NCBI GenBank assembly: GCA_965216755.1
Contig: CBDCGL010000011.1
Location: forward strand, 2,752,001-2,816,000
Direction of reading: 5' to 3'
DNA from: Alphaproteobacteria bacterium
GTDB taxonomy: Bacteria > Pseudomonadota > Alphaproteobacteria > UBA7887
DNA: 64,000 bases
The position numbers were made by a program, and so were the translations under genes. Below are positions 1-27,924 of this stretch, piece by piece (position 1 is the stretch's first letter; the number at the start of each line of letters is the position of its first letter). The notes beneath the pieces were generated by a model. The model saw only the letters and a list, made by a program, of their open reading frames with translations, had not been told where the DNA came from and searched no databases.

Positions 1-893
1 CGAAACACCCACAGCGCCGCGGTGACGGCGACAATCACAGCCACCAAGCGTTCGCCGCGCGACATCGGCCCAAGATCCTTGAGCTGCTCCGCGATCATGG
101 CGGCTTGGCCGGGTACCGCCGGCAGATGGAGCGGAAAGACGATGCGCGTCAAGATGACCCAGACAATTGGCAACATGATGACCATGGTCGGCACGCCCAC
201 CATCATCCAGTCGAGAAAACTGACATCGATTCCGTAGGTTTCGGACATAAATCCGGCAAGCACGGCATTGGGAGCCGTGCCGATCAATGTGCCCATCCCC
301 CCGATTGTCGCAGCGTAGGCGATGCCGATCATCAGGGCGGTCGCAAAGCGCCGATTTTCCGCCTGCCGGGCGGCATCGTCACCGGCCTCGCGCGTCGCGA
401 AATCGATCACCGACAGGGCAATGGGCACCATCATGACCGTTGTTGTGGTGTTGAACACCCACATGCTGATCGGTGCCGTTGCCAACATAAAACCGCCCAC
501 CACATTAACCGGGCGGCCACCGACCAACGCCACGAGATTGAGGGCGATGCGCCGATGCAGGCCCCAGCGCTGCATGCCGAGGGCGATGATAAATCCGCCC
601 AACATCAGGAAAATAATGGGATTGGCGTAAGGATAGGCCGTCTCCTTGATCGGCATCACGTCGAGCAGGGGAAATGCCGCCAGAGGAATCAACGCCGTCG
701 CCGATAGCGGAATGGCTTCGCTGACCCACCAAGTTGCGATTAGCGCGGCAACTGCCGCCGTGTGCCAGCCGGCTACCGACAACCCAGCCGGCGCTGGCAT
801 GGCTTCGAGCGCCAAAAAGACGACAACGCCGAGGATCAGCCCGATGGCTTGGCTGCGGGCATAGCTGCCCTCGGTCTCTTGGTTTTCACTCAT
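1..893 (-). CDS. DASS/SLC13 family sodium:dicarboxylate symporter (3' end outside the window)
   Basis: Manual translation from ATG 893 (MSENQETEG...WWVSEAIPLSATAL...FNTTTTVMMVPIA...IGGMGTLIGTAPNAV); polytopic membrane protein with DASS motifs; missing from the ORF track because the stop lies outside the window. Confidence 0.85.
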   Translation of the reverse strand, partial: MSENQETEGSYARSQAIGLILGVVVFLALEAMPAPAGLSVAGWHTAAVAALIATWWVSEAIPLSATALIPLAAFPLLDVMPIKETAYPYANPIIFLMLGGFIIALGMQRWGLHRRIALNLVALVGGRPVNVVGGFMLATAPISMWVFNTTTTVMMVPIALSVIDFATREAGDDAARQAENRRFATALMIGIAYAATIGGMGTLIGTAPNAVLAGFMSETYGIDVSFLDWMMVGVPTMVIMLPIVWVILTRIVFPLHLPAVPGQAAMIAEQLKDLGPMSRGERLVAVIVAVTAALWVF

Positions 894-3383: not shown

Positions 3384-3669
3384 TGGGCCACACCGCGCGG
3401 ACGGTGTTTGATGTGTTGGCGCCTTCGCGCCTGGATCATCCTGCAAGGTCAATACCGACGGACCGCTTCAGGTGACCATTCAATGCTCGTTGAAATCTAA
3501 CTCTTCACGTTCGCTTCGACGGGTCGGCAGATGGCGGCCACCAGCGGCGTCCGGCAGGGCCGTTGTCGTTGACGGCATCTGGTTCCAAGACTGGCTGGCC
3601 TTGGAGGTGCCTGCGTGGAGCCCTGGCACCAGCCTATCAAAGCCACAGCATTGTAACCCATTGATATAT

Positions 3670-3678
3670 TGGCGCACC
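3670..3678 (+). repeat. Left attachment core TGGCGCACC
   Basis: Identical to 27713-27721; followed by TCGAAGGAGAAACTTCGAACC, which resembles the tRNA T-arm side CGACAGGATTCGAACC. Confidence 0.85.
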
Positions 3679-3776
3679 TCGAAGGAGAAACTTCGAACCG
3701 CCTCTTTGAAACACTACAAGACTGGGACACCTACCTCAAGGAGAACACTGTCGAGTTCAGGGAGCCTGCACCATGA
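3678..3776 (+). other. Displaced 3' segment of the serine recombinase gene (LEGETSNRLFETLQDWDTYLKENTVEFREPAP*)
   Basis: In frame with the recombinase across the att core (GTG GCG CAC | CTC GAA...); 32 open codons; TGA 3774-3776 overlaps the mobC ATG. Confidence 0.75.
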
Positions 3777-4222
3777 CGCAGCACTCCCAGGATTGGAATC
3801 GCGGCAGCACCTCAAAGGCTTTCACGGACGCGGCGAGGCAAGCCCAATCACAGCCGTATGAAAAACCGGTTCCATTCTCTCTGCGTCTGACGCGCGAAGA
3901 ACGGGCGCAACTGCATGCGCAGGCTGGAGATCAGCCACTCGGTGCCTACATTCGCCACCAATTGCTAGGCGACAAAGCCCAAAAGCGCCGCCGCACACGC
4001 CGGCCCGGAGTCGACCACCAGAAGCTTGCATTGGTACTTGCCGAACTCGGACGTTCGCGGCTCGCCTCCAACCTGAACCAACTTGCCAAGGCAACAAATA
4101 TGGGCACGTTGGACGTATCCGCCGATCTCGAACAGGAGCTCCGTGAGGCTTGCCAGTCCATCGCGGCGATGCGTGAGAAACTAGTCTCGGCCCTGGGCGT
4201 GAAGGTGGAGTCTGGAAAATGA
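3773..4222 (+). CDS. mobC: Mobilization relaxosome accessory protein MobC (RHH)
   Basis: FSLRLTREER RHH-like N-terminus and SNLNQLAK MobC motif; overlaps the relaxase start. Confidence 0.85.
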   Translation: MTQHSQDWNRGSTSKAFTDAARQAQSQPYEKPVPFSLRLTREERAQLHAQAGDQPLGAYIRHQLLGDKAQKRRRTRRPGVDHQKLALVLAELGRSRLASNLNQLAKATNMGTLDVSADLEQELREACQSIAAMREKLVSALGVKVESGK

Positions 4223-5511
4223 TACTCGTAGGAAATCAGCGGGGCGGAGCGAAAAGCTTGGCCCTCCATCTGCTGAAAGACGAGAACGATCATGTGGAGG
4301 TGTTCGAACTTCGGGGCTTCGCCTCGGATGAATTGCTCCCTGCACTGAACGAAGCCTACGCCGTGAGCCGGGGCACGCGCTGCAAGCAATTCCTGTTCTC
4401 GCTCAGCTTAAACCCACCGCGTACCGAGAATGTCGAAACGGGCGTGTTTGAGAACGCTATTGACAGAATCGAGGAAAAGCTGGGTTTACAGGGTCAGCCC
4501 CGCGCCATCGTCTTTCATGAAAAGAACGGCCGCCGTCATGCGCATGCGGTGTGGAGCCGGATCGACACAGGTGAAATGAAGGCAGTTCCCCTGCCCTACA
4601 CGAAATTCAGACTGCGGGACATATCGCGTGAGCTTTACCTGGAGCATGGCTGGACCATGCCGCACGGTCTTATGAACTCCGAAGCGCGCGATCCTAAGAA
4701 CTTCACCTTGGCGGAATGGCAACAGGCCAAGAGGATCGGCAAAGACCCACGCGAAATTAAGACCGTCTTCGAGGATTGCTGGGCGGTGAGCGATACGCAG
4801 GCTGCGTTTGCCCATGCCCTAAAGGAGCGCGGCTACGTTCTCGCACGCGGCGACAAGCGCGGTTTCGTGGCGCTCGATTTCCGTGGTGAAGTCCACTCGG
4901 TCTCCAAGCGGGTCGGGATCAAGGCGAAGGACGTGCGCGCCAAGCTGTGCGATGAGGAATCTCTGCCTTCCGTCGATAAAGCCAGAAGCCAGATTGCCGA
5001 GGGCATGGCGGCGCGGCTTCAGGAATTAGAGGGTCAACACCGCAAGACAATTGATGCTCGCACAGCCGCGCTTGAACAACGTTGCAGGACGTTGACGCGC
5101 CAACATGTGGATAAACGACGGGCCATGTCCGAATTCCATGAAGCCCGCCAGCTACGAGAAAGGTGTTTACGCCAGGACCGGTTCCGAAGCGGTTTGCGCG
5201 GCCTCTATGACAGGGTGACAGGGCAGCATAAGAGGATTCGTGAGCGCAATGAGGATGAAGCCTGGCAGGCCCTTTTGCGCGACCGGCGGGAGAAAGATGC
5301 ACTGATATTCCGGCAGCTCGAAGAACGTCGGAACATTCAAGATCGACTTGAAAAACTCAGGTCGCTGAAGTCAGAACGGACAACCGAGCTCAAACGCGAC
5401 ATCGACGCGTACCAGGAGATGAAGGAAGGCGAGCGTGAGAAACTGGAACGTCATCGCAGTGACAAACCACGCATCCAGCGGCGACGGCCCGGCAGAGACC
5501 TGGGGAGATAA
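4219..5511 (+). CDS. Relaxase/mobilization nuclease (MOBP-like)
   Basis: SLSLNPP motif and HUH motif FHEKNGRRHAHAVW; coiled-coil C-terminus; coupled to mobC. Confidence 0.9.
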   Translation: MILVGNQRGGAKSLALHLLKDENDHVEVFELRGFASDELLPALNEAYAVSRGTRCKQFLFSLSLNPPRTENVETGVFENAIDRIEEKLGLQGQPRAIVFHEKNGRRHAHAVWSRIDTGEMKAVPLPYTKFRLRDISRELYLEHGWTMPHGLMNSEARDPKNFTLAEWQQAKRIGKDPREIKTVFEDCWAVSDTQAAFAHALKERGYVLARGDKRGFVALDFRGEVHSVSKRVGIKAKDVRAKLCDEESLPSVDKARSQIAEGMAARLQELEGQHRKTIDARTAALEQRCRTLTRQHVDKRRAMSEFHEARQLRERCLRQDRFRSGLRGLYDRVTGQHKRIRERNEDEAWQALLRDRREKDALIFRQLEERRNIQDRLEKLRSLKSERTTELKRDIDAYQEMKEGEREKLERHRSDKPRIQRRRPGRDLGR

Positions 5512-5551
5512 AGTTCAGCCGGCCAACAAAATGAAAAATGGGGTGCGCCTG

Positions 5552-5678
5552 CACCCCTGCCTCGTGGCGAACAGGGGTGTGCAAGCGGAAGGAAAAATCG
5601 GCGGCGGGCGCACAAGCGTCAGCGCGGAGCCTCGGGAGACCGCCTATTTTTCCTGAAGCGCGCTGAGGGCGAAGCCCT
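5552..5678. other. Cluster of hairpins downstream of the relaxase
   Basis: CACCCCTG/CAGGGGTG; AGGAAAAAT-CGGCGG/CCGCC-T-ATTTTTCCT; AGGGC-GAA-GCCCT. Confidence 0.6.
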
Positions 5679-5690
5679 AAGCCGCGTGAG

Positions 5691-5769
5691 GGATCGAAGC
5701 CGCATGGCCGAGACCGCGTATTGCGGGCTCGGTTTACGAGAGCCCGGTCCGGCTTCAGCCGGACGTGCC
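5691..5769 (+). repeat. Structured repeat, copy 1
   Basis: TCGAAGCCG.ATGGCCGA...GGGCTCGGTTTACGAGAGCCC-GTCCGGCT/AGCCGGAC-GTGCC; aligns with 7713-7792 and 9214-9269. Confidence 0.8.
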
Positions 5770-6169
5770 GGGAAGCCAGAACCGAATCAGCCTATGATTT
5801 GAAATGTTAGAATTCACGGCCTTGATTACCCATTTATCGGTACCAATCTCCCAGGTCGCTTGGCCACAGGCAAAAACTGTGAACGCCGATTTGGGCGGCT
5901 TTACATGCGCCGGGAAATGTGTTTCTAGAGTGACGCGCTTTCTAGCGACGCTGGATCGGCTCGCTGACCGTGTTCTTCAACACCCCGCTAAGCGCCAGGA
6001 CGTAAGCCGGAAGTGCCGAAATATCCGTAAATGGTGTGTCGGGTCCGTTTTTTTCAATTCTGCATTGACAGTGCCGTCAGCTAGATGGTTACCTTCTCAT
6101 GAAGCTTCCTTTGCAGCTGCGTGAGGTTATTCTTTTGCCCCTTCCAAGTCCCGTTTTTGCGGTTGGAGC

Positions 6170-6675
6170 GTGACTCCGCTGCAAGCCGAGCGTCTGCTGA
6201 TCATTGTTCAAGAGGCCAAACAAAACGGATGGTATATGGGAACTTCAGCAGAATTAGCGAAACTTTTTGGAGGCGATGGCATTAGTGTCACGCCAAGGGC
6301 GGCAAACTATTTCATTACGCACTTGGCTGGGGCATACGGGTGTTGCAGCAAGCAAGGCAGGCGCTGGAGGGTCGATCACGAAAACTTGTGCACTGAAACC
6401 GGAAAGTGCCGCCTACCTGATGGAGTTGCAGCGACTGTGCCAGAGTGGTGCGAACAGGGCGTACCGGGTTTCAAGAGAAGAGTTCTGCCAGGTTCTTGAA
6501 ACGAGGTATGGAGCCGACAGGGAAACCATGGACGATTTCTTCGAGGTCGCGCTCGGAGGCGACTATGTGGAGGCGCTCGTTAACCCACGAGGCTACATCC
6601 GGCCTGGGCCACGGATGGATGCAGCAGCTTGAATACCTGGAGTTATTGTCAAGGAGTGTGGCATCGAATGAATAA
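6170..6675 (+). pseudogene. Probable doubly frameshifted hypothetical gene
   Basis: Three overlapping + ORFs (6170-6499, 6267-6632, 6445-6675) whose protein-like segments run on from one another in successive frames. Confidence 0.4.
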
Positions 6676-6735
6676 ATATGAAATAATCCGGAGTATTTCT
6701 TTATGTTAGTCCGTGTATTTAAAAGGTAATGTACT

Positions 6736-6972
6736 ATGAAAATCAGAAAAATGCATACTGAAGAAAATCCACCCGAAAGGAAAGGGTTGGTACGGACGTT
6801 TGAAGACCTACGTCGTGAGGCTGGTCCACTTGAGGAAAGGCTGAAGCGTTATGGTTTCGATTTGTACGGTGATCACGAAGGGTTCTATGATTCTCAGAAT
6901 GCGGAACTTAAGAGGAAATCCGACGAACACCTAAAGGCGCCGCTGCTCAGCATAGCTAAACAGGAACCATGA
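6736..6972 (+). CDS. Small hypothetical protein
   Basis: AT-rich ORF with an AAGG RBS-like motif; ATGA overlap with the next gene. Confidence 0.55.
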   Translation: MKIRKMHTEENPPERKGLVRTFEDLRREAGPLEERLKRYGFDLYGDHEGFYDSQNAELKRKSDEHLKAPLLSIAKQEP

Positions 6973-7673
6973 ATGCGGACGATGAAGGGACAATTGATGT
7001 CAATACGGAGATCCGAGACGTATTAGACTATTATCAAGACACCTTTGTTCTCGCCGGCACGACGTACGCAGAAATATCCAAAAGGACTAACGCAAACGAA
7101 CCTCTTTCTCCTCTCGTACTCGGCGAAGTGCGGAGTGCTCTTACTCATCTGGCGCGAGCCAGCAAAGCGCGCCCAGAGAATTCACAAAAAGAATTGTTCC
7201 GTTCGCGTCGGCACATAGCGGTCGCCGCACGTGAAGCCATTAAAGCCAGCATCACCCTCATCAGAGATGATGTAGAAACAAATTTTCGTTCGAGCATCGA
7301 ATTCTTTGGGCGGGCCGACGAGCAACATGTAAGAGACGCGATGCTGATCGACGCCCGCGTCGCAAAAATGATTGAAGCCGAAGATGACCAAAGCCTAGAG
7401 CAAACCCAAGCGGATATCAGAGACTACAAAGAAATATTGTCATGCTATTTAGCTCTTCGCGAAAAGCAATTAGATGAGGAGTATATAGGACAATTTCTCA
7501 GTAGTGCCGAAATGAGAGCGGAAATCGAAAAGAGGAAAGAACGAGTACAAGAGGACGAGAGGAAGAAAATTGCCACGACGAAGAAAAAAACACGAAGAAC
7601 GGATATTATTGTTTTATTTGTCGTCACAATCGTAGGCGCATTACTCAGTTGGGCGCTAGGTCTTATCCCATAA
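6969..7673 (+). CDS. Hypothetical helical protein with a C-terminal membrane anchor
   Basis: 234-aa ORF; EVRSALTHLAR and RRH motifs; basic stretch followed by hydrophobic IIVLFVVTIVGALLSWALGLI. Confidence 0.75.
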   Translation: MNADDEGTIDVNTEIRDVLDYYQDTFVLAGTTYAEISKRTNANEPLSPLVLGEVRSALTHLARASKARPENSQKELFRSRRHIAVAAREAIKASITLIRDDVETNFRSSIEFFGRADEQHVRDAMLIDARVAKMIEAEDDQSLEQTQADIRDYKEILSCYLALREKQLDEEYIGQFLSSAEMRAEIEKRKERVQEDERKKIATTKKKTRRTDIIVLFVVTIVGALLSWALGLIP

Positions 7674-7699
7674 ATCAGCGGGCTGCCAAATAAGAATTT

Positions 7700-7792
7700 G
7701 GTTCACGAGTGTGGTCGAAGCCGAATGGCCGAAGCCTGACGCAGACGGGGTTCGGTTCACGAGGGCCTGGTCCGGCTTTAGTCGGACGTGCC
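7700..7792 (+). repeat. Structured repeat, copy 2 (with an extra GGTTCACGAG core at 7700-7709)
   Basis: Aligns to copy 1 with a compensatory stem change (CCGAA/TTCGG versus CCGAG/CTCGG). Confidence 0.8.
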
Positions 7793-7837
7793 CGATGAAG
7801 ATTCGCACGTGATTGACACATCTAGTAGATTGATAGT

Positions 7838-9154
7838 ATGGCATGGGAACACAACAAAGAGCAGTGCCCGCTGGCCGCCGTCGATCGGCGGCTCGAAGAC
7901 GTGCATCGGTTTTGGCACCAAGCGGAGGAAGTCTACTTCGACCCTGACGCCTTCCGTGTTGCCATTCAGGCGGCGATCCAGACCGCGCGGACCGTGACGC
8001 TTGTTCTTCAAAAAAATAAGAATGTCCTCCCCGACTTCGACAAATGGTACGAGCCTTGGCAGGAAAAACTCGGTGCCAACGCGCTTATGAAATGGATGGT
8101 GGAGGCGCGCAATCGCATTGAAAAGCAAGGCGACCTTGACGCGCATAGCTTTGTGAGCGCCGAAATCGTCGCTTCGCACCTGGACGAAGGCCTGCACATC
8201 CAGGTTCCAGCAAGGTTATCCGACGCACCGCTGGCTCTCATAAGAAGCATTCCCGCGAACGCCCTCGGCGAACACATGAAAAAGGACGGCATCTTGAGAA
8301 TCCGCCGCCGCTGGATCGAGAACAGCTTGCCGGACTACGAGCTTCTGGATGCGGTCGCAGATGCCTACGGCCAACTCTCCCAAGTCGTACGCGCCGCGCA
8401 CCGTCAGATGGGCGTCGGCGGTCCGGAGACGACGAACGTGACGACGGGCCAGACTTACCCCGACGGTGATCGCGCTGGGCGCTTGCCGTGCATGATCGGG
8501 CACGAAGACGCACGCACGCTCGACGTTTGGCTGGCGACAGGCGAGCCATTGGAATTCTCAGAAGTACCGCACAAAGTCGATCTATCTAAAGGTCCCGAGG
8601 TGATGAAGCGGTACGGCGTCGAGCCGCAAGAGATGTTTGCAGACAGTGGACTGCCGGAGGACCACGCCCGCACGCTATTCGCCACCGCCCGCAAGATGTT
8701 CGAGAAAGACGGCTACCACATCACGCTGGCGATTCTATTACCCGATGGTAAGCCTGCCGCGTTCCGCGAGCTGCGGCCCGAAGAACACGGTCACAAATAC
8801 ATGATGATGCGCAACCTTGCGCATGAAGCCCAACGCATTGGTGCGGACTCTGTGATCCTCATCAGCGAATCATGGAGCGCGCCCGCTAACCCAGCCAAAC
8901 CCTACATGCGGCCCGTGGATTCACCTGATCGCCGCGAGCTTCTGACAGCGACAGTCGTGTCGAAAGCCGGAGAGCCACTACATCTGTCAGCGGAAATATT
9001 TCGAGAGAAGAACAAGGTTTCGCTAGGCGAGACACACGAGAATAGCGGCGGCTCGCACTACGCCTTCGCGCCATTCTACGAAGTGTGGGGCAAGGAAATT
9101 CCTGCGATCTGGGTTTCCGGGGAACGCACCGCCGATTCTGCTGAAGAGAAATAG
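7838..9154 (+). CDS. Hypothetical protein, possible N-terminal HEPN-like domain
   Basis: 438-aa ORF; helical N-terminus with WMVEARNRIEKQGD (RNxxxK variant). Confidence 0.65.
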   Translation: MAWEHNKEQCPLAAVDRRLEDVHRFWHQAEEVYFDPDAFRVAIQAAIQTARTVTLVLQKNKNVLPDFDKWYEPWQEKLGANALMKWMVEARNRIEKQGDLDAHSFVSAEIVASHLDEGLHIQVPARLSDAPLALIRSIPANALGEHMKKDGILRIRRRWIENSLPDYELLDAVADAYGQLSQVVRAAHRQMGVGGPETTNVTTGQTYPDGDRAGRLPCMIGHEDARTLDVWLATGEPLEFSEVPHKVDLSKGPEVMKRYGVEPQEMFADSGLPEDHARTLFATARKMFEKDGYHITLAILLPDGKPAAFRELRPEEHGHKYMMMRNLAHEAQRIGADSVILISESWSAPANPAKPYMRPVDSPDRRELLTATVVSKAGEPLHLSAEIFREKNKVSLGETHENSGGSHYAFAPFYEVWGKEIPAIWVSGERTADSAEEK

Positions 9155-9213
9155 AACGTCCTTGGCCGCCCTTTAGCACCCGGCACAAAACAGAGTTGCA
9201 TGCGCAACCCTGT

Positions 9214-9269
9214 GGGGTTCGGTTCACGAGAGCCCGACCCTCCGTAGCCGTAACGAAGGAGGGCGCGCC
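9214..9269 (+). repeat. Structured repeat, copy 3 (3' half)
   Basis: GGGGTTCGGTTCACGAGAGCCCG, then a different-sequence stem CCCTCC/GGAGGG, then CGCGCC. Confidence 0.7.
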
Positions 9270-9342
9270 TCATCACAAAGCGCCATTCAGCAGGAGCGAC
9301 TGAAACACAATTGAGACAATCAGAAAGCCAATCGAATGCTCT

Positions 9343-11013
9343 TTAACGTGCCTTCCAGATTATGAGGCTAGCGAGTGAAAGTATTCGGATCATGTCGATA
9401 ACTTTGTTGTGGTCAAAGCGCAAAAGGCCAAGGTGGGCTCCTTCATTGCGAATGACCCAGAAGGAGAGCAAGGCCCGAACGACCGGATTGTAGGCGCCGC
9501 CCGCCTTGATGCGCGCGATCTGCGCGAGCCTACTCGGCAAAGTGCTCTTGCCCGTATCTACGAGCTTTCCGTAGCGCGTAAATAGAGGGCAGAGATCAAC
9601 CGGCCCATTCACATTAAAAATGCGCCGAAGCTTTCGGGATAAAGTATCACCGCGCGGCTCAAGGCCTCGGTCGATAATCGCTTCATTGGCAATCATCTCA
9701 CATAATGTGGCCATGTTAACGAGTTCGGATGTCGAAGCCGCTCGGTGAATTGGATCGTCCCGCCGCTCCAGATCAACGAGCCGCCGGAAATGCCAGTAAT
9801 ATTGGTAAAGTCCTCTTTCTTCCAACCAATCGCAAAAATGACCTAATTCTGCTTCACTGACCGGAAATGGAGCCGGCAAAGGGCCAAGCGCTTCATCCGC
9901 CCATCGCTTTAGCGAGCGGATCGTCAAGGAGCGCTGCTCTTCCGTCCAGTCGGGATAAACCACTTCAAGTGTAGGTCTGAAATGACCCATGCGCCGTCCT
10001 ACGCGAGCGACTACATCGCGGGGATTAATCGCCGTCGCGCTGCGCAAGAACATGATCGAAGAATGGATGTTGCGCTTGTACTCCTCTGCTACAGCCGCAG
10101 GGCCGACCTTCTGCGCGTTATGCCACCACTCACACTGCTTGCCGATAAAGCTGATCACATCGTCTTCGGATAGTCCGCTTGCGCGAAACGTCTGATCCGC
10201 GATCTCACGTTCGCGTCGCAAATATCGCTGCCATGGCCTGTAGGGTATGCGGCCATGTTGATCGCGGTCGCCTATGAAAGTTTGAAGCGAGTTATGCGCA
10301 TAGGCATGAAAATACCCTACCGCCTTAAAGTGCCGCTCGTACTCTCTAAGCTCACGAAGTTCGCGGTAGCCCTCAATATTGACGCTCTGTTGTGAGCGTG
10401 TCCTTAGCTCGTCAAGAGTTAGCACATTGCCACGCAGGACTTCTGTTCCTAGATGCTCGTCATCAAGCGGATAATAGATATGCACGCCCGAGCGCAGGAT
10501 CGCAGCGAGCCAGAATATTTGCCAGTAGTGATAGAAGCTTGGCGTATCGTGATCGGGGTTCGAAAGGATGGGACCGCCATCAGTTTGATAGAGACGGACG
10601 CGGCGGTCTTCCCATGATGTGAAGCTATCGCGCGAAAACTCCGTCTGGATAAACGGACGATGCGCATCATCGAGCACGTCGAGCGCGTGAATGCTCTCTC
10701 CATAGCGGTGCGCATCGGGCCAGCGCGCGATGGCCTGCATGAGAGAGGCGGCGTCATTAAGGCGCGACCCGTCCGGCTCGATGGGATCGACGATATCGAC
10801 ATGCGGGTAGGTCTCACGGGTGCAACGCCGCAAAATATCCGCAGGCAGATTGATCCGGCACACGGGCGTCAGCAGACCTTCTCTTTCAAGAAACTCCATC
10901 AGCTCCCTTGCAGGAGGATGCGTGCTTAGATCGAGATCAACGGCGTAATCGCACAGTTCTTTTTGACGTATGTAGCGCCGCCCGAATCTGTTTTTTGTTC
11001 TTATTGGCGTCAT
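9343..11013 (-). CDS. Hypothetical protein with a C-terminal HEPN motif (RNEGAH)
   Basis: Start reassigned to ATG 11013, about 20 nt after the HerA stop (556 aa); RxxxxH near the C-terminus. Confidence 0.7.
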   Translation of the reverse strand: MTPIRTKNRFGRRYIRQKELCDYAVDLDLSTHPPARELMEFLEREGLLTPVCRINLPADILRRCTRETYPHVDIVDPIEPDGSRLNDAASLMQAIARWPDAHRYGESIHALDVLDDAHRPFIQTEFSRDSFTSWEDRRVRLYQTDGGPILSNPDHDTPSFYHYWQIFWLAAILRSGVHIYYPLDDEHLGTEVLRGNVLTLDELRTRSQQSVNIEGYRELRELREYERHFKAVGYFHAYAHNSLQTFIGDRDQHGRIPYRPWQRYLRREREIADQTFRASGLSEDDVISFIGKQCEWWHNAQKVGPAAVAEEYKRNIHSSIMFLRSATAINPRDVVARVGRRMGHFRPTLEVVYPDWTEEQRSLTIRSLKRWADEALGPLPAPFPVSEAELGHFCDWLEERGLYQYYWHFRRLVDLERRDDPIHRAASTSELVNMATLCEMIANEAIIDRGLEPRGDTLSRKLRRIFNVNGPVDLCPLFTRYGKLVDTGKSTLPSRLAQIARIKAGGAYNPVVRALLSFWVIRNEGAHLGLLRFDHNKVIDMIRILSLASLIIWKAR

Positions 11014-11032
11014 CGCATTGCACTCGCATAGC

Positions 11033-14448: not shown

Positions 14449-15182
14449 GACCTTGCCGCCTCCGCTGCCACATGGCCTGCGAGCTCGCTGACAAAGGTCC
14501 GAAGGCCGGTCATTTCGCTAAGGTCTGAGTATTCGCCGGTACCGGCGCCGTTGCGCGGCGATATGATGACCGACGCCGCCGTGTAGAGTTGCTCCTGCAC
14601 CAACTTACGACACAAGATGTTGTAACGGTCGGCATAGGACGCAGTCTCAAATTCAGCAAAAACCGGAAAATGCGGTGAGATATCCTTGACCGGCGCGCGT
14701 GATTTCGGGGCATCCTCGAGCAACATGAGCCAGCCAACAAAGGGCCGCGGCTGTTCGCCGAATGCGCCTTCGCGATAGGCGGTCCACAGGTCGTGGGCAT
14801 TGCCGATGGCCTCTTCGGTCCGGTTGTTGAAATTGTTGCCGAATGACGGACCGACTTGGCTCTTGAACTCCAGCACCGCGACCAAATGGCCCCGATTCAT
14901 TACGAGCAGGTCCCACTGCTTCGTTGGCCGAAAATAACCCGGAAGCGTCACGACCCGGCGCTTTCTGTGGATGTCTGCGAGACCGAGACCGTTGGCGCGC
15001 ACGATCTCCACGACCAGCGCGACGAACCCATCCATATTCTTGCCCGCCGTGACACCAGCGCGCTCGCCCTGATCTGCGTTGCCTGACTCGATTTGTTTCT
15101 GACGGGCCTGCTCACGATTGCCCCAGAACGCCTGAACAGCCTCGCGCGCCTTTTGTTCGTAATTTGCCAGATCAATCGCCAT
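14445..15182 (-). CDS. PaeR7I/XhoI-family type II restriction endonuclease (predicted site CTCGAG)
   Basis: [12 protein letters not shown]...[23 protein letters not shown] family signature. Confidence 0.88.
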
Positions 15183-15193
15183 GCCCGTCTTTC

Positions 15194-21995: not shown

Positions 21996-22877
21996 ATGGC
22001 CAGTTTTGGAGGCTACAGACGGCGCGACCCTATAAGCCGGGCGTTGCTCATATCAGGGATTATCATCATTCCAGGCCTGGCGATTGGAGCGACAACTTGG
22101 GGTGTAAGCCGGGTCGCTGACATTGAACGGATGGACCGGGAAACTTTTTGCTACAGGCAAGATGAACAAGCGCACACGGGATTCATGATCGATGCATCTT
22201 TTGATAGCATCACAAGTGAACGGCAAAAGCGCGACTTGCGCAATGCGTTGATCGGCGCTTTTGAAAATATGGAGCCTAACGGACAGCTCTCGGTCTTCAC
22301 GACCGCCAAGGACAAAATCGGCACTTTTCTGGTACCGGTGATCCGTTTTTGCCGCCCCATGCGAACCTTGGACGAACAGACGCAGGTTGGCGTGGCCAAA
22401 CAGACGCAGGCTTATCTATCTCGTCATTATGAAGAGGCCCGACGCCTTTTCATTGGCCAGGTTGATGAACTGATAGCCAAGGCTGCGGACCCTGAGCGAC
22501 AAGCCGATCACAGCCCGATTATGGAGCAAGTTCAGTCACTTTCGCACCATGGCTTTTCAGGGCGGCTACGCAAGATGGTCATCTACACGGATGGTCTGCA
22601 AAACAGCGAGGTACGACGGTTCTGCTTGGTAAAAGGTCATTTGCCGAGCTTTGAGAGGTTCAGCCAACATTCCGATTACAGGCTGGTGCGCCCTGGTTCA
22701 CTGGCAGGCGTGGATATCGAAATCCTTTTGGTCGAGCATACGCTTTTCCCGTCAAAGGACTTGAAGTTCTGCACTAACAATGAAATCCGCGCCTTTTGGA
22801 CGGGATATTTCGAGGCAGCGGACGCGGCCTCCGTGCAGATGATCCGTCTGCCTTATGGCGGGCTGGGCCGGTCGTGA
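21996..22877 (+). CDS. Membrane-anchored vWA-like protein
   Basis: N-terminal TM; MIDAS-like IDASFDS and IYTDGLQNS; strong RBS AAGGAG. Confidence 0.7.
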   Translation: MASFGGYRRRDPISRALLISGIIIIPGLAIGATTWGVSRVADIERMDRETFCYRQDEQAHTGFMIDASFDSITSERQKRDLRNALIGAFENMEPNGQLSVFTTAKDKIGTFLVPVIRFCRPMRTLDEQTQVGVAKQTQAYLSRHYEEARRLFIGQVDELIAKAADPERQADHSPIMEQVQSLSHHGFSGRLRKMVIYTDGLQNSEVRRFCLVKGHLPSFERFSQHSDYRLVRPGSLAGVDIEILLVEHTLFPSKDLKFCTNNEIRAFWTGYFEAADAASVQMIRLPYGGLGRS

Positions 22878-24637
22878 CGTACGGATCAAATAGAGGCGGA
22901 GGCAACGTAGAGGGGCCGAGTTTCCTGGTACTGTTGGCCGTTGCGGGCGGCCTGATCTGGCTTTCCATCCATCTTGGGCCGCCCATGGTGCAGGGACAGC
23001 TTCGCCCGCTCCCGGCGCTAGTCTTCTTCGTCGCCGGTATCATGCTGCTTCGCCTCGCCATTCGCGGATTGGAACTGTTGGCCTGCCTGATCGACTGGCA
23101 GAGCAGCCGAACCCCAACGGGAAAGGATGGCCTGGCCGCATGGGCGAGGAAGAACGATTACAAGGCGGAATTGCGCGAGGCGAATGGCGGGCCGTTCTGG
23201 GGCCTGAGCCTTGGTCGCAAACCGGCACCACTCTTCATTGACTACGTATCCAATGCGATGACTGTCGCGCCTGCCGGATCAGGAAAAGGCATCTGCACAG
23301 TCGTTCCGAACGGCATGAGTATCCGCGCCAGCAAAGCCTTTGCGGATTTCAAAGGCGAGCTTGTCTGCATGCTCAAACAGCCGCTGGAAGCGCGTGGGGA
23401 AATCGTACGTATACTCAATCCCGGAGGCCTGTGGGAAGAAACAATCGGGCCAAGCGAGCTCTATAGCCCACTCGATATTCTTGCGGATGATCTGAACCGG
23501 CCTGGTGGCTTGCGCGATATCCCAGACGATCAGCGCGAGATGAATAATCAAATCCTCCCCGAGCCGAGTGAGCGCGAATCAGAGAATTCCTATTTTAGGG
23601 AAGGTTCAAGGCGGCTGATGGCGGATGCCGAGTTGATGGAGGTGATGGTCGATGAATATGACGCCACATTCTCCTCGGCCGCGCTACTGATTGAAGACCG
23701 TCAGCGGCTGGAGGACATGGCGCGATGGATGGCCGGAGTCGATTTGGACGGGAAGCCCCACCCGGGCGGACCGTTTCCGATTGAGCAAACACCGTGGGCA
23801 GCGAAGCACGATGTGCGCGATGTGGCGGAGTTTGCACAGCTTGTGCGCGCGCGAGCCCACAATCTCCTGGCGTTAGCGACTGCGGACGATTCGCGGACGT
23901 TCGATTCCTTCATTACTGGAGCACAGCAAGCCCTTGCACCATTCGCGTTTGGCCGCATCGCACCTTGCATGGGCCGTTCGACGTTCAGCATGGACGAACT
24001 GAAGCAGGGTGACCATCCGACCAACCTATTTATCGTTGCCGATGCAAGCCGTATGGAAGCATACAAGCCTTTCATCGGGTTAATCCAATGGTGCTGCATG
24101 ACCGCGATCAAGCGCCATAATAACAAAGAGCGACCGGTCTATTTTATCTTAGATGAGGCCACTAACTATAGAGTCAGCGGCCTGGAGAGCCTTCTGACCT
24201 GGGGGCGGTCTTATGGGCTCCGGCTACACGTCATTTTCCAGGACTTTGCCGCATTTGAACGGATCTATGGAAAGACCGCATTGGACACGCTGCTCAGCGA
24301 GACCGAAATCAAACAGATACTGCCGGGGCAGCGCTCACCGAAAACCTTGGAACTAATCTCCAAGAAGATGCTTGGGGATCAATCGATCATGGCTGCAAGT
24401 ATCGGACGCGATAATCACTTGTCCGGACTCAGAGAGACTATGAGCGAGACCGGCCGGCCCTTGATGACGATGGACGAACTTAGACGCACTGACAAGGGAT
24501 TGCTGTTTGTCCGGCGCTGCAAACCGATCCTTTTCGAACCTGTTTCTTATGCGGAAATTTCGCCCTGGCGCGATCAGGTTGGGATCAATCCCTACTTCGG
24601 CAAACCATACCGGAAGAAAGTAAAGCTGAGACTCTGA
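22874..24637 (+). CDS. virD4: Type IV coupling protein TraG/VirD4
   Basis: Two N-terminal TMs; APAGSGKG, DFKGE, FILDEA, GRSYGLRL..IFQD; GTG start overlapping the upstream stop. Confidence 0.9.
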   Translation: MTYGSNRGGGNVEGPSFLVLLAVAGGLIWLSIHLGPPMVQGQLRPLPALVFFVAGIMLLRLAIRGLELLACLIDWQSSRTPTGKDGLAAWARKNDYKAELREANGGPFWGLSLGRKPAPLFIDYVSNAMTVAPAGSGKGICTVVPNGMSIRASKAFADFKGELVCMLKQPLEARGEIVRILNPGGLWEETIGPSELYSPLDILADDLNRPGGLRDIPDDQREMNNQILPEPSERESENSYFREGSRRLMADAELMEVMVDEYDATFSSAALLIEDRQRLEDMARWMAGVDLDGKPHPGGPFPIEQTPWAAKHDVRDVAEFAQLVRARAHNLLALATADDSRTFDSFITGAQQALAPFAFGRIAPCMGRSTFSMDELKQGDHPTNLFIVADASRMEAYKPFIGLIQWCCMTAIKRHNNKERPVYFILDEATNYRVSGLESLLTWGRSYGLRLHVIFQDFAAFERIYGKTALDTLLSETEIKQILPGQRSPKTLELISKKMLGDQSIMAASIGRDNHLSGLRETMSETGRPLMTMDELRRTDKGLLFVRRCKPILFEPVSYAEISPWRDQVGINPYFGKPYRKKVKLRL

Positions 24638-24644
24638 GAGAGGT

Positions 24645-24938
24645 GTGCACGAAATGAAACACTATGTACCGAGGCGACTCCGGCCCTGGGCCCTGCCCGC
24701 TCTGGCGGTGCGGACGCTGATCTATATCCTCGGGCACTGGCCGCTTGCCTTGGTTGCAGCGCTTATCATCTCACCGGTCGGTCCGCATCTACGTATCCAA
24801 TACAGCTACTTCGATTACGGCGGCGGCCTGAGGTCGATGACCGAGTGCGATTATTTCGGATCACGCGGAATGGTGAAGTATCGCTTCGGCAGTCAATGCC
24901 CAATCGTCGCCATCATCGATACGCGAGATGTGCAATGA
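24645..24938 (+). CDS. Small hypothetical membrane protein
   Basis: 97-aa ORF immediately after the T4CP; one hydrophobic segment and two Cys. Confidence 0.65.
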   Translation: MHEMKHYVPRRLRPWALPALAVRTLIYILGHWPLALVAALIISPVGPHLRIQYSYFDYGGGLRSMTECDYFGSRGMVKYRFGSQCPIVAIIDTRDVQ

Positions 24939-25029
24939 CATTGATTGGTTTTTCATTCCGAACGTTCTGCCTTAAGGCCGAACGCGACGGAGACACTAGG
25001 GAAGGCGGACTCAGAAACGAGGCACTAGA

Positions 25030-25314
25030 ATGAGTGAGTATGACAATAAAAACCAAGACCGCAAGCCGGCCTTTATCGCCTACAGCGTACGCGATTCCCA
25101 GGACGGAAAAGGACATTGGAACCGCATCGGTGCTGCATGGGAGCATAGAGATGGCCAGGGTTATGAAATCAGCCTTGACAGCCTGCCTATCAATGGTCGC
25201 GTAACGCTGCGCCAACTGCGTGAAGAGCGAATGCAGGATTACGAAAGTGCGCGGGGGGCCCGCGAGCCAAGGCACCATGCGGAACGAACGCAGAGCCGTG
25301 GACGGCAACGGTAA
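25030..25314 (+). CDS. Small DUF736-like (putative ssDNA-binding) protein
   Basis: AYSV...WNRIGAAWEHRDGQG..I.LDSLP..GRVTLR pattern typical of alphaproteobacterial mobile elements. Confidence 0.65.
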   Translation: MSEYDNKNQDRKPAFIAYSVRDSQDGKGHWNRIGAAWEHRDGQGYEISLDSLPINGRVTLRQLREERMQDYESARGAREPRHHAERTQSRGRQR

Positions 25315-25735
25315 CCGAAAAGGCGCGCGCCACGGCCGCGGGAGCACCGGTGGTTACACTAGGGATGACGACGATCTGTATGCGGGCGCAGACGACAGAG
25401 TGCGGTCGCATTCGGTAGCCAAATTGGCTTTCGATAAGGCGCGCGATCCGCTGAGCAACTGCCAAATCGAGGATATTGACAAGAGCGAGACAGGGCGGCG
25501 CGAAGAAAGCGGGGGCGGATCGCAGATGGTGAAGCGTCACCGCCCCTTTCCTGAGCTAAAGCCATCTTTTGCACTGGCCCAGTATGCCATCCGTGAGGCA
25601 TTCAACAGGGCATGGCTCAGGGAGCAGCGGGCGGCGCGACTCGCGCGGATGCGACAGGTACGGGCGGTACGTGCCGCGACAGAGCGGAAACAGGAAATGC
25701 CGCGTTTCCCTAAAGGCCCTACACCGAAACTTTGA
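25220..25735 (+). CDS. Hypothetical protein (true start probably downstream, e.g. GTG 25298)
   Basis: Fills the operon gap on the same strand; basic C-terminus. Confidence 0.4.
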   Translation: MKSECRITKVRGGPASQGTMRNERRAVDGNGNRKGARHGRGSTGGYTRDDDDLYAGADDRVRSHSVAKLAFDKARDPLSNCQIEDIDKSETGRREESGGGSQMVKRHRPFPELKPSFALAQYAIREAFNRAWLREQRAARLARMRQVRAVRAATERKQEMPRFPKGPTPKL

Positions 25736-25769
25736 CCGAAGGAAAATCTAAATCGGGGCATGAAAATAG

Positions 25770-25811
25770 TTGCCGTGCGAATAATAATGGTTTAATGTTC
25801 TTGTTTCGTTC
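25770..25811 (+). promoter_or_regulatory. Sigma70-type promoter overlapped by an alphaproteobacterial LexA (SOS) box
   Basis: TTGCCG (25770)-N17-TAATGT (25793); GTTC-TTGTTTC-GTTC at 25797-25811. Confidence 0.7.
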
Positions 25812-25859
25812 TATCAAAAGCAGCACAAAGGGAACAAACGGCTTTGAAGGAAAGCGCTT

Positions 25860-26199
25860 GTGAATCAGACAGACAAAAAGAGAGAAAGGAGAGCACACAG
25901 GCAGACAGGAAATGCCGCCCCCGCGGACTCGCTTGACCTTGATCCCCACGAATATCGGGAGCACCTGGAAGGTTTGCACCTAACTGAAGCCGAGGAAAAT
26001 GAGCTTCTGCTGGCGCTATGGTCCATTATGAAAGCCTTTGTCGACTTGGGTTTCGGGGTAGATTCTATCCACCATTTTTTCCCGGCGCTTGGGCCAAATT
26101 CTACGCAAGCTTCGCCGGAAGCGTTAGAATCAAACGATCGGAAATCTGCTCGTCAGTCAGAGGAAGGCAGTTTTGATCCGGCGAGAAAGATGGTGGGCC

Positions 26200-26213
<14 letters not shown>
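25860..26213 (+). CDS. Hypothetical protein upstream of the recombinase (candidate accessory/directionality factor)
   Basis: LD..EY...[29 protein letters not shown]; overlaps the recombinase start. Confidence 0.65.

Positions 26214-27924
<1,711 letters not shown>

Follow-up and report, generated by a model that had tools for sequence, protein, structure and literature searches.

Structured repeats between orphan genes of an alphaproteobacterial island probably belong to a conserved leading-region module of conjugative elements

Why should unrelated small genes in an alphaproteobacterial island lie between structured repeats, and what might such repeats do? The window, by which we mean the whole 64,000-nt stretch of DNA analyzed, had been described as carrying three structured repeats in direct orientation that bracket its orphan genes like a cassette array, and they were read either as attC-like recombination sites or as a folded single-stranded signal for priming or promotion on the transferred strand. 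The three repeats are borne out by matches to their core, counted against shuffles, and by the scores of the covariance model R1, and all of them lie on the + strand:

5684..5769, + strand: copy 1, full module (R1 92.2 bits, E 5.8e-27; core match)
7704..7792, + strand: copy 2, full length, diverged (R1 64.1 bits, E 4e-18)
9213..9269, + strand: copy 3, 3' part only (R1 27.2 bits, E 1.6e-06; 5' half unaligned)

The 20-nt core, GGGYTCGGTTYACGAGRGCC, stands on the + strand at 5725, 7748 and 9215; shuffled windows held a mean of 0.04 core matches, and three matches were reached in 0 of 100 shuffles. Copy 1 consists of a closing stem P1 (GCGTG/CGTGC, with two wobbles), a second stem P2 (GGG/CCC) and the hairpins P3, P4 and P5, the last two of which are recovered by a DNA fold. 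Copy 2 has a P4 of the CCGAA/TTCGG type and one mismatch in P2, and it is a mosaic, its 3' half being nearly identical to that of copy 1 and its 5' half unlike it. Copy 3 begins at the 3' strand of the second hairpin and runs to the 3' closing strand, comprising the 3' strand of P4, the conserved junction, the 3' strand of P2, a P5 hairpin of its own and the 3' strand of P1; an array at another locus, L046, likewise ends in a 3'-only copy. The "lone core" at 7700, previously counted as a further copy, is instead the 5' closing strand of copy 2, in which CACG (7704-7707) pairs with CGTG (7787-7790), and as the AG that follows CACG is the junction of the family, the chance resemblance to the core is only 4 nt long.

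Across the family, the element is 85-125 nt long and folds into five strongly covarying helices, namely those of the closing stem, the second stem and the three hairpins. The change from CCGAG/CTCGG to CCGAA/TTCGG seen in the preliminary description is real and concerns one pair of P4, which is G-C in 72, A-U in 24 and G-U in 2 of 98 distinct sequences, and the series from GTCCGGCT/AGCCGGAC through AGTCGGAC, with a G-T wobble, to CCCTCC/GGAGGG, which is equally real, belongs to the variable hairpin P5. The trailing CGYGCC belongs to the closing stem as its 3' strand, the matching 5' strand having been missed, and the inner pair of this stem is C-G in 41 sequences, G-C in 32, A-U in 7 and U-A in 2. 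Among 78 sequences, pairing was kept in 91.7% of the cells, compared with 82.1% in shuffles (0 of 500 reached the observed value) and 21-51% when the partners were slid, and 149 cells had changed on both sides, compared with 57 in shuffles; in the 98 distinct model-aligned sequences, 16 of the 21 pairs had changes on both sides. The evidence for structure is comparative, because the folding energies of the single copies are not significant alone (DNA z-scores of -2.5, -1.0 and -0.85). Conservation of the core is partly by construction, since the loci of the alignment were found by a pattern that fixes these 20 nt; the copies of the F, Massilia, PromA and G028 elements were found by the model alone, and the core varies among them.

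The module is rare in the genome and common on mobile DNA. The 5.0-Mb genome holds four copies, of which the only one beyond the window is diverged and lies on contig C10, and none was found in 22 genomes of the same family, so a REP-like genome-wide repeat is rejected and the motif is not the scattered terminator or REP whose discovery would have disposed of the cassette idea; an intrinsic terminator is rejected as well, the closing stem not being followed by a T run. In Alpha-, Beta- and Gammaproteobacteria, more than 100 loci of elements that are conjugative or mobilizable carry the module, and same-strand arrays recur among them. At least five relaxase types co-occur with it (small PF03432 relaxases, the DUF3363 type, the MOBP relaxase of PromA, MobQ, MobA/MobL and MobF are found beside it), which argues for a role that is recognized by the host or is purely structural.

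The repeats of the window stand in such an element:

3773..4222, + strand: MobC/NikA-like gene
4219..5511, + strand: MobA/VirD2-type relaxase gene (Pfam PF21983, PF05713 and PF03432 as the set for 3773..5511)
5804..7673, + strand: cargo between copies 1 and 2, with open reading frames at 6170-6632 (two overlapping frames), 6736-6972 and 6969-7673
7838..9154, + strand: cargo between copies 2 and 3, one 438-aa open reading frame of no known family (Pfam, PADLOC)
22796..27924, + strand: far end of the island (Pfam, Rfam tRNA, GC step)
22796..24637, + strand: coupling protein gene (Pfam)
26173..27924, + strand: large serine recombinase gene (Pfam)
27716..27789, - strand: tRNA gene (Rfam)

A GC step lies at about 27.5 kb, and no tyrosine recombinase was found among the island open reading frames scanned with Pfam. 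Copy 1 starts 170 nt after the relaxase gene, an arrangement shared by the sibling island G101, and relaxase and module lie on one strand in the siblings G101, G115 and G149, too. The cargo between copies 1 and 2 has a GC content of 48-50% and matches nothing in Pfam or PADLOC, public contigs differ by one base at 6396 and at 6617, and its 234-aa protein was found in 0 of the 400 other genomes searched. Two of 400 other genomes encode homologues of the 438-aa protein (48-51% identity), and no module lies within 1.5 kb of the gene in either of them.

The most informative relative proved to be a classical plasmid. R1 was built solely from loci found with the alphaproteobacterial core, and it matches the F plasmid of Escherichia coli twice, at 64.7 bits (E 7.6e-19) and 50.0 bits (E 3.3e-14), with all five helices kept in both matches. 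These lie 5.4 kb apart on the strand opposite to the genes, each as the far end of a 559-nt repeat (89% identity within the pair), and the repeats stand upstream of ssb and of two open reading frames beside oriT. The available text of PMC9849209 locates the two promoters about 5 kb from each other, Frpo2 upstream of ssb, Frpo1 upstream of ygeA/ygeB, and shows that early expression requires both. The F version of the module (87 nt) is present at 8,188 places in 4,061 plasmid records. Within F it occupies the transferred strand, 3' of the promoter hairpins, and would therefore enter the recipient after them. The relation between F and the module spans the module only, the promoter hairpin not being included, and judged from the sequences it is the module, not the hairpin, that is conserved from Gamma- to Alphaproteobacteria.

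The strand of the module is consistent wherever the transferred strand can be inferred, namely in F, F-like plasmids, the Massilia MOBF plasmid and the PromA plasmid pSB102, where the module lies on the transferred strand and heads opposite-strand operons of ssb, psiB, ardA, ardC, parB and methylase genes. For pSB102, the published oriT (available part of PMC4175270) carries TATCCTGC on the minus strand of the record, which is the strand of the module. Two F-like plasmids, G496 with three copies and G459 with two, have them upstream of ssb and of operons with antirestriction and methylase genes, next to TraM. The Massilia plasmid has five same-strand copies beside the operon for MobF and the coupling protein, in a leading region in which they lie among ssb, parB, methylase, JAB and PAPS-reductase genes and 26 of 29 coding sequences run on the opposite strand from the modules. 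At all 18 ArdC loci the gene is on the 5' side of the module and on the opposite strand, and genes for ArdA, DUF2958, DUF6876 and ParB-like proteins are placed in the same way. The orientation in the window is atypical, relaxase and both cargo sets being on the strand of the module, as are the genes flanking the arrays at L046 and L049, and because the flanking genes share their strand, the modules of the window cannot head them as a single-stranded promoter would. We infer that this island transfers its + strand; under the common rule that the relaxase gene enters the recipient last, the modules would lie on the non-transferred strand here and in G101, G115, G149 and L012. At best weakly, a transfer origin can be suggested by its nick region:

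3419..3445, + strand: candidate nick region, in which CATCCTG|C follows a GC hairpin of 5 bp (sequence)

This sole nick-like motif on the + strand is weak, the motif alone is not enriched (four found, 5.8 expected), and among the 10 siblings with upstream DNA extracted (30 relaxase loci scanned) only one other, L143, has the same motif at the same place and on the + strand.

How far the word promoter applies can be stated fairly precisely. The module contains no -35 or -10 boxes, and at the ArdC loci scanned, 17 of 18, neither strand has TTGNNN-16..18-TANNNT in the interval from module to ardC, which is too short at the remaining locus. In a comparison by eye, the sequences that the PMC11541004 supplement lists for ssiD and for the Frpo of ColIb-P9 end about 40-90 nt short of the module, so that priming and promoter activity were mapped without it. 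The window does have a hairpin that, on a comparison again made by eye, may correspond to the A/T-run promoter hairpin in the F repeat unit:

5590..5654, + strand: hairpin 30 nt 5' of copy 1 whose arms contain A5/T5 runs (inverted repeat I11; arms of 15 nt, 93% complementary)

It has TATTTT in its 3' arm and no -35 box. No RNA run was found to contain the window's DNA. The suggestion of a folded single-stranded priming or promoter signal on the transferred strand is thus the reading we favor, because the same module is found in the Frpo repeats of F, in F-like leading regions and in the Massilia plasmid, and the earlier interpretation is partly supported. Given the lack of boxes in the module, "promoter" applies to the F unit that contains the module and not yet to the module itself.

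The cassette look is not an illusion, and the boundaries of the cargo do coincide with the ends of the repeats in relatives. In 103 of 112 pairs of loci that share only the upstream backbone, homology ends between -26 and +10 nt of the 3' end of the module, with a mode of +1/+2, and in 17 of 23 pairs that share only the downstream side, it starts within 3 nt of the 5' end. Such breaks are what would be expected of a folded single-strand recombination site that works like attC, at which a site- or structure-specific recombinase, possibly of the host, inserts or exchanges cargo and so builds arrays, and they are joined by the same-strand arrays themselves (three copies in the window, two each at L046, L032, L026, L049 and G028, five in the Massilia plasmid, three in G496 and two in G459), by the 3'-only copies that close the arrays of the window and L046, by the mosaic copy 2 and by a fic gene that stands at equal distance from the module in two unrelated backbones. 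With integron attC sites the module shares single-strand folding, pairing kept under sequence drift, direct arrays around short unrelated genes and boundaries at the site. The attC site, however, is served by IntI and is a bulged hairpin with R and L boxes, whereas the module has five helices and a near-invariant 20-nt core; the R''/L'' and L'/R' boxes are not in the module, and on direct reading the core has GTTCAC rather than GTTRRRY. That no integron integrase is visible, as had been remarked for the window, holds genome-wide, where the best TIGR02249 match reaches 77.2 bits and the cut-off is 265 (in the control genomes, too, all matches fell below it), and no recombinase is common to the loci, which have a serine recombinase, a tyrosine recombinase or none. 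Most examined loci have a single copy within the stretch fetched, the cargo is often an operon and lies in either orientation, both homologues of the 438-aa protein found elsewhere lack the module, and in four public runs, a weak test, no contig joins across a cassette. Homologous recombination between repeated units explains the same patterns, and recombination between Frpo1 and Frpo2 is raised as a possibility in the available text of PMC9849209. Membership among attC-like sites is not borne out, and a recombination site of this kind is unlikely.

A structured non-coding RNA transcribed from the + strand and carried by conjugative elements, be it a small RNA, an element for processing or stability or a regulator at the RNA level, would fit the multi-helix junction and its covariation, the modest excess of G-U over A-C on the + strand (64 and 45 over all 21 pairs; 17 and 3 over nine well-aligned pairs of P3 and P4) and the co-oriented flanking genes of the window and the PromA plasmids, with which the module would be transcribed. 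Against it, Rfam yielded no family, the best sub-threshold match being Proteo-phage-1 at 18.8 bits with a gathering score of 42, and only two tRNAs in the window; there is no conserved promoter at a fixed distance and no U-tract terminator; of 60 loci, 41 have their 5' neighbor and 43 their 3' neighbor on the other strand; and in F the strand of the module is the template of the leading genes, so that their mRNA would carry the complement. The loops are also poor in GNRA and UNCG: in 262 hairpin loops predicted with RNA parameters, 56 of 96 triloops are GNA and only 14 of 102 tetraloops are GNRA. GNA triloops are a signature of DNA mini-hairpins, and these loops, together with the lack of a conserved upstream promoter and of an Rfam family, lead us to infer a fold of DNA rather than RNA, leaving the RNA explanation with a slim chance. 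An origin of transfer or secondary relaxase site, whose copies the relaxase would nick and rejoin, with recombination between copies moving the genes that lie between them, is extremely improbable; it would suit the spacing of 170 nt from relaxase gene to copy 1 here and in G101 and the lack of a conserved oriT upstream of mobC in the siblings. An oriT is, however, specific to one relaxase, and the module is found with unrelated relaxase families. F has its own known oriT elsewhere, and the oriT of pSB102, as given in the available part of PMC4175270, lies about 25 kb from the module; with these and the five or more relaxase types, the module as an origin of transfer is rejected.

Known systems place the repeats further. 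IncF and IncI plasmids have class 1 single-stranded promoters and ssi sequences (in F, Frpo1 and Frpo2; in ColIb-P9, ssi1-3). These, too, are structured intergenic units that recur in the leading region on one strand, the transferred one, where each stands at the head of an operon of ssb, psiB, ardA and orphan genes, and the module is physically inside both 559-nt F repeats together with Frpo1 and Frpo2. According to the available text of PMC9849209 and PMC12672017, units of this type are active only while the DNA is single-stranded. The published promoter, however, is a long stem-loop that rebuilds the -35 and -10 boxes, whereas the module is a separate GC-rich fold of five helices, and its neighbor genes in the window are on its own strand. 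G4-type and other ssi signals and the single-strand origins of rolling-circle plasmids and ICEBs1 are orientation-specific multi-hairpin folds of about 100-150 nt, read on the single strand by host primase or RNA polymerase; the likeness to G4-type folds is by description only, and among known ssi sequences the ssiD fragment does not contain the module. The CUP (conserved upstream) repeats that the IncN plasmids pKM101/R46 have in their leading region, direct repeats before successive antirestriction and orphan genes, share, again by description only, the cassette-like layout but are described as double-strand promoters with repressor sites. In the part of bioRxiv 10.64898/2026.01.09.698686 that was available, ssp2 of F is a single-stranded promoter that also stalls complementary-strand synthesis, and as a stable transferred-strand fold in the leading region it resembles what the module might be, a putative delay to double-strand conversion. 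The F-like plasmid G496 has a copy upstream of an ArdB/KlcA-like antirestriction gene, whereas in F the antirestriction gene has, according to R1, no module upstream of it.

Family membership, structure, association with conjugative elements, strand in classical plasmids and coincidence of boundaries are established, and the repeats are real but of a known kind of system rather than new cassette machinery. As far as sequence comparison can tell, they probably represent, in Alphaproteobacteria, a conserved module of several hairpins and about 90 nt, the folded transferred-strand DNA of the units for single-stranded promotion and priming in conjugative leading regions. The module would fold in the transferred single strand just after its entry into the recipient and work with, or guard, a neighboring single-stranded promoter or primer site, either because a conserved host factor recognizes it or because it forms a stable barrier to complementary-strand synthesis and to read-through transcription from later-entering DNA. 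Arrays would come about because every operon of the leading region brings a unit of its own, and recombination between units would swap the genes between them, which would account for the cassette look and the sharp boundaries of the cargo. The module stands at the later-entering edge of the unit, often near or overlapping the stop codon of the preceding operon. One possibility, which we put forward tentatively and with more doubt than confidence, is that it is a separate, pan-proteobacterial functional part of leading regions that predates the promoter hairpins and is better conserved than they are, a programmed boundary that would halt later-arriving synthesis and read-through, keep the single-stranded promoter single-stranded for longer and only incidentally serve as a breakpoint for swaps of leading genes.

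Conjugative plasmids disarm host defenses by early expression from the single strand that enters. To our knowledge, studies of it have dealt almost exclusively with IncF and IncI plasmids of enterobacteria, with new examples coming from BLAST or hairpin hunting. A module defined by a covariance model spans F, the broad-host-range PromA plasmids, ICEs of Bradyrhizobium and other alphaproteobacteria and small mobilizable islands, and it would explain the cassette look of unrelated small genes without a new integron-like system. It may serve as a portable marker of leading regions and hence, for elements with no known oriT, indicate which strand is transferred, and may open a route to anti-defense and orphan leading genes outside the enterobacteria.

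The repeats lie within an island of about 24 kb, whose genes share the window with all three module copies and run in the following order:

3773-5511, MobC/NikA-like protein and MobA/VirD2-type relaxase, the first genes of the island
5684-5769 (+), module copy 1
5804-7673 (+), orphan genes, including that of a 234-aa protein
7704-7792 (+), module copy 2
7838-9154 (+), orphan gene of 438 aa
9213-9269 (+), module copy 3
9343-11298, ORF of 651 aa without a family, adjoining the defence genes
11033-16924 (-), SIR2-HerA defence pair (PADLOC: HerA 833 bits, SIR2 580 bits) and a restriction-modification pair of XhoI-type endonuclease and Eco57I/TaqI-type methylase
Far end, coupling protein, then a large serine recombinase adjoining a tRNA gene

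Two overlapping ORFs of the first cargo set, 6170-6499 and 6267-6632, are probably one gene split by assembly indel errors, because one base is missing at each of positions 6396 and 6617 in otherwise matching contigs of two public runs.

The three direct-orientation copies noted in the preliminary description are real and were well observed, as a pattern search finds the 20-nt near-invariant core at 5725, 7748, and 9215, always on the + strand, against 0.04 matches in the shuffled window, and none of 100 shuffles attains three. A repeat finder aligned 45 nt of all three copies and located a second, upstream block common to copies 1 and 2. The scores of the copies with R1, the covariance model built from an alignment of 78 alphaproteobacterial sequences (A1), are 92.2, 64.1, and 27.2 bits, the third copy comprising the 3' part only, and the supposed lone core at 7700 belongs to copy 2, of which it forms the junction and 5' closing strand, hence no additional copy. 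The 5.0-Mb genome holds only one more copy, a diverged one on contig C10, and the core was absent from all 22 same-family genomes searched; the element is therefore not a REP-type repeat scattered over the genome, nor is it a general terminator; a known terminator or REP of genome-wide spread was what the preliminary description had said would count against its reading. Some 460 nt downstream of the fourth copy (L004; 15459-15574 of the small contig C10, - strand) is a gene for a HipA-type kinase, and HipA genes are also found near the module at two other loci (L049 and L066). No Rfam family matches the repeat: only two tRNAs were found in the window at gathering scores, and the best permissive match was Proteo-phage-1, whose 18.8 bits fall short of the threshold of 42.

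An exact-pattern scan of one genome per species gave at least 108 stretches with the core, and a second conserved block stands 5' of it in about 90 of 111 core matches among the matches listed. From the 78 sequences of A1, the following structure was derived by hand:

P1, closing stem, whose 3' strand is the CGYGCC trailing the repeats
P2, short stem, GGG/CCC
P3, small GC hairpin
P4, hairpin bearing the CCGAG/CTCGG pairing
Joining strands, two, near-invariant
P5, hairpin free in sequence and length

Pairing is kept in 91.7% of the A1 cells, compared with 82.1% after shuffling (a value attained by none of 500 shuffles), and it falls to 21-51% when the partners are slid by 1-3 columns. Both sides have changed in 149 cells, against 57 in the shuffles, and these counts support the covarying pairing claimed earlier, of which CCGAG/CTCGG belongs to P4. 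R1 found 101 matches in 98 sources at E 0.01 or better, and in their alignment, which is model-fitted and leans towards R1, both-side changes occur in 16 of 21 pairs (shuffled mean 9.7; 0 of 500 shuffles). The local hairpin within the core that RNAalifold chose on a MAFFT alignment was rejected because it has no compensatory change, while the hand-built structure covaries. Conservation of the core in A1 and in the later alignment A2 is partly by construction, since the seed loci were found by a pattern that fixes the core; in copies found by R1 alone, from F, a Massilia plasmid, PromA plasmids, and genome G028, core bases are changed and the helices kept. In the G028 variant (L176, 4750-4850 and 6491-6591), both joining strands are replaced by mutually complementary sequences that lengthen P2, which suggests that the joining strands face each other in the main family as well.

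Two loci of the phylum sample (G496 and G459) are plainly F-like leading regions, with genes for TraM, an SLT transglycosylase, an antirestriction protein, methylases, PsiA, PsiB, a large ParB-like protein, SSB, and ArdA. Their R1 matches are antisense to genes and lie upstream of ssb and of a methylase-containing operon in both, with an additional match upstream of the antirestriction gene in G496 only. The F plasmid of E. coli K-12 has two R1 matches, 58072-58175 and 63460-63563 (64.7 and 50.0 bits), in which every helix is kept, P4 with a compensatory change, and all five helices appear in the DNA fold of lowest energy computed for the F strand. The F leading region has a single long repeat, two units of 559 nt with 89% identity at a distance of 5.4 kb, and a match stands at the end of each; ssb lies downstream of one unit, and two ORFs adjoining the SLT gene and oriT lie downstream of the other. 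This arrangement matches the account of Frpo1 and Frpo2 in PMC9849209: ssb lies downstream of Frpo2, and ygeA and ygeB downstream of Frpo1; the two promoters have 92% identity, are separated by about 5 kb, and are both required for early expression from the single strand as it enters. Classes 1-3 of ssDNA promoters are distinguished in PMC12672017, and priming from Frpo and stalling at ssp2 in F are reported in bioRxiv 10.64898/2026.01.09.698686. The 87-nt F version of the module occurs at 8,188 places in 4,061 plasmid records, mostly from Enterobacteriaceae, 3,095 of which are typed conjugative. Because R1 matches fall at the ends of the Frpo-bearing repeats of F, we chose the reading as part of an ssDNA promoter or priming unit.

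Judged by sequence, the module adjoins the published promoter and is not identical with it. The known sequences in the supplement of PMC11541004 include ssiD and ssiE of F and Frpo1-3 of ColIb-P9; in comparisons made by eye, F ssiD ends about 90 nt ahead of the module start on the F strand, and the ColIb-P9 Frpo fragments end about 40 nt ahead of the module. Several 400-nt candidates in the same supplement reach into the first half of the module by accident of length. The preliminary suggestion of an ssDNA priming or promoter signal on the transferred strand was essentially right in that the module belongs to the Frpo units of F. The module itself has no -35/-10 boxes, and the orientation of the genes around it in the window is atypical. 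Promoter boxes were likewise absent between the module and ardC in the 17 of 18 ArdC loci with an interval long enough to be scanned. Long, very stable hairpins are common there; at five loci (L032, L043, L073, L020, and L035) the interval of 190-250 nt contains imperfect hairpins of about -100 to -146 kcal/mol (RNA parameters), and in one group of them GTCAAG pairs at the hairpin base with CTTGAC, which we take to be a -35-like hexamer for Alphaproteobacteria. The ardC-module hairpins may be local counterparts of the Frpo stem-loop. Read 5' to 3' on the transferred strand, an F unit consists of genes, leader, A/T-run promoter hairpin, further hairpins, and module, and the homology of the two units ends 23 nt past the module, the same sharp 3' edge as in the alphaproteobacterial loci. 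Systems of this kind are known; in the papers open to a text search, the alphaproteobacterial core occurs nowhere and the F version only in one unrelated paper. As far as the literature searched goes, neither the existence of the module as a distinct and deeply conserved part nor its occurrence in alphaproteobacterial ICEs, islands, and PromA plasmids seems to have been reported.

A Pfam scan of 68 related loci (300 of 319 selected ORFs) places the element in ICEs, mobilizable islands, and plasmids. ArdC is encoded 5' of the element in 18 loci, on the opposite strand in every one, and the other backbone genes of that side, for ArdA, DUF2958, DUF6876, DUF3768, and ParB-like proteins, are typical of plasmid establishment. 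The 3' side is varied, with AbiE, RloB/AAA_21, OLD-type, Fic, HipA, SIR2, GmrSD, Schlafen-like, and HEPN genes, a mer operon, type I restriction, and, in Bradyrhizobium ICEs, TraI/TraR quorum-sensing genes. By crude ORF calls at 60 loci, the nearest gene is antisense to the element in 41 cases 5' of it and in 43 cases 3' of it; the gene next to it on the 3' side often terminates only a few tens of bases away or extends into the flank of the match. Carriers include the PromA broad-host-range plasmids pSB102 and pMRAD02, small MobQ and MobA/MobL plasmids, and the Massilia MOBF plasmid; in even samples of 150 other genomes each, the element was present in 12 from the class and in 7 from the phylum, four of these seven lying outside the class. 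Directly 5' of the pSB102 module, between a small-ORF block and the transfer genes (L113, 5440-5900), stand about nine inverted copies of GGTGACA/TGTCACC that look like iterons or operator sites. The linear record of a Xanthobacter plasmid (L137, NZ_CP063366.1) has a gene order of about 19 kb twice and looks like a concatenated assembly, so its two module copies count as one.

Wherever the transferred strand can be inferred, the module lies on it. The leading genes point the same way as the relaxase operon in F, in the F-like plasmids, and in the Massilia plasmid, and the strand that serves them as template is the one with the module (at the Massilia locus, 26 of 29 coding sequences are opposite to it); according to PMC11541004, the transferred strand is the template of leading genes and the relaxase region enters last. 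The oriT of pSB102 published in PMC4175270 has TATCCTGC on the minus strand of the record, which is the module strand. Whether the fold acts as DNA or RNA can be weighed from several features. No position upstream exceeds 0.3 bits until the one immediately ahead of the closing stem, the element is not trailed by a T run, and most neighbouring genes are antisense to it, all of which favour DNA. No RNA run is listed that contains window positions 5400-9400. Among 262 terminal loops predicted with RNA parameters, 96 are triloops, and 56 of these are GNA, closed mostly by C-G; GNA triloops are a hallmark of stable DNA mini-hairpins. The 102 tetraloops predicted in the same way include only 14 GNRA and 2 UNCG, and the loops, too, favour DNA. 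G-U outnumbers A-C by 64 to 45 over all pairs and by 17 to 3 in nine well-aligned P3 and P4 pairs, which modestly favours the + strand. That the module is an RNA element seems quite unlikely to us.

The modules of the window lie on the same strand as the relaxase gene and both sets of cargo, and therefore cannot stand at the head of these genes in the way that Frpo does for ssb. If the relaxase gene is the last to enter, it is the non-transferred strand that would carry the modules in this island and in sibling islands G101, G115, G149, and L012. In G149 and L012, ardC and ardA are antisense and 5' of the module, the classical geometry. G149 has the order ardC, element, serine recombinase, and the G101 island shares the mobC-relaxase-element backbone, with a type I restriction system directly after it. 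Under a family-wide rule that the transferred strand carries the module, with the nick on its 5' side, the window island would be nicked on the + strand upstream of mobC, and mobC and the relaxase gene would be transferred first. A GC hairpin followed by CATCCTG|C at 3419-3445 fits this predicted nick. As a motif, the MOBP nick-like YATCCTGY beside that hairpin (3437-3444) was set aside: the window contains it 4 times where 5.8 occurrences are expected, which is no enrichment, and it is not conserved in the siblings, since within the 30 relaxase loci scanned only one other (L143) of the 10 siblings with extracted upstream DNA has it at this place on the + strand. A second "conserved motif" upstream of mobC, tried as oriT, proved to be the first codons of a small conserved ORF, and the siblings have no common non-coding motif further upstream. 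This ORF of about 36 codons (3664-3776) overlaps the mobC start, is kept in sibling islands, and is below the 60-aa limit of the ORF list. Positions 5590-5654, which end 30 nt short of copy 1 on its 5' side, contain a hairpin whose arms have A5/T5 runs and which is similar to the A/T-run hairpin of the F unit. Any RNA directed by it would be antisense to the relaxase gene and would be sensible only as a primer.

An all-against-all comparison of 92 oriented loci shows that cargo boundaries in relatives coincide with the repeats, the check that the preliminary description had set out. In 112 pairs, the upstream backbone is common (up to 1.5 kb, 70-90% identity) and the downstream DNA unlike, and the homology ends between -26 and +10 nt from the element 3' end in 103 of them, with a mode of +1/+2 (27 pairs); ends before the element 3' end fall in the variable hairpin P5. 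Sharing is downstream only in 23 pairs, 17 of which begin within 3 nt of the element 5' end. Copies are in direct orientation in all 14 adjacent pairs of the following same-strand arrays:

Window, three copies
L046, two copies with fic between them, the second 3'-only
L032, L026, L049, and G028, two copies each
Massilia plasmid, five copies
G496, three copies
G459, two copies

The preliminary interpretation of the repeats as attC-like sites of cassette recombination is nevertheless judged not to be right. It keeps some chance, on account of the mosaic nature of copy 2 and of the copies that are 3'-only, and we consider it unlikely. Travel of the cargo as cassettes was rejected: homologues of the 438-aa cargo protein occur without the module, and none of 400 genomes searched contains a homologue of the 234-aa protein. 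Contigs from four public runs were checked for cassette loss, and two "joints" from 5714/5717 to 9219/9215 were rejected as excision products: other letters stand between their sides, and they come from short contigs that belong to other module copies in the same samples.

The reading that we prefer is that the repeats are copies of a module that would fold in the transferred single strand as part of the ssDNA promoter/priming units of leading regions. Among more specific roles, a boundary function is favoured in our analysis. The module lies at the later-entering edge of each unit, often near or overlapping the end of the last gene of the preceding operon, and complementary-strand synthesis and read-through transcription would arrive exactly there; a comparable stall has been demonstrated at ssp2 of F, and for the module we only infer it. 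Because the module is alike with at least five relaxase families, from Alpha- to Gammaproteobacteria, it would be recognised by conserved host machinery or act physically on such machinery. The cassette-like array would then be a by-product of the presence of one unit per operon and of recombination between units.
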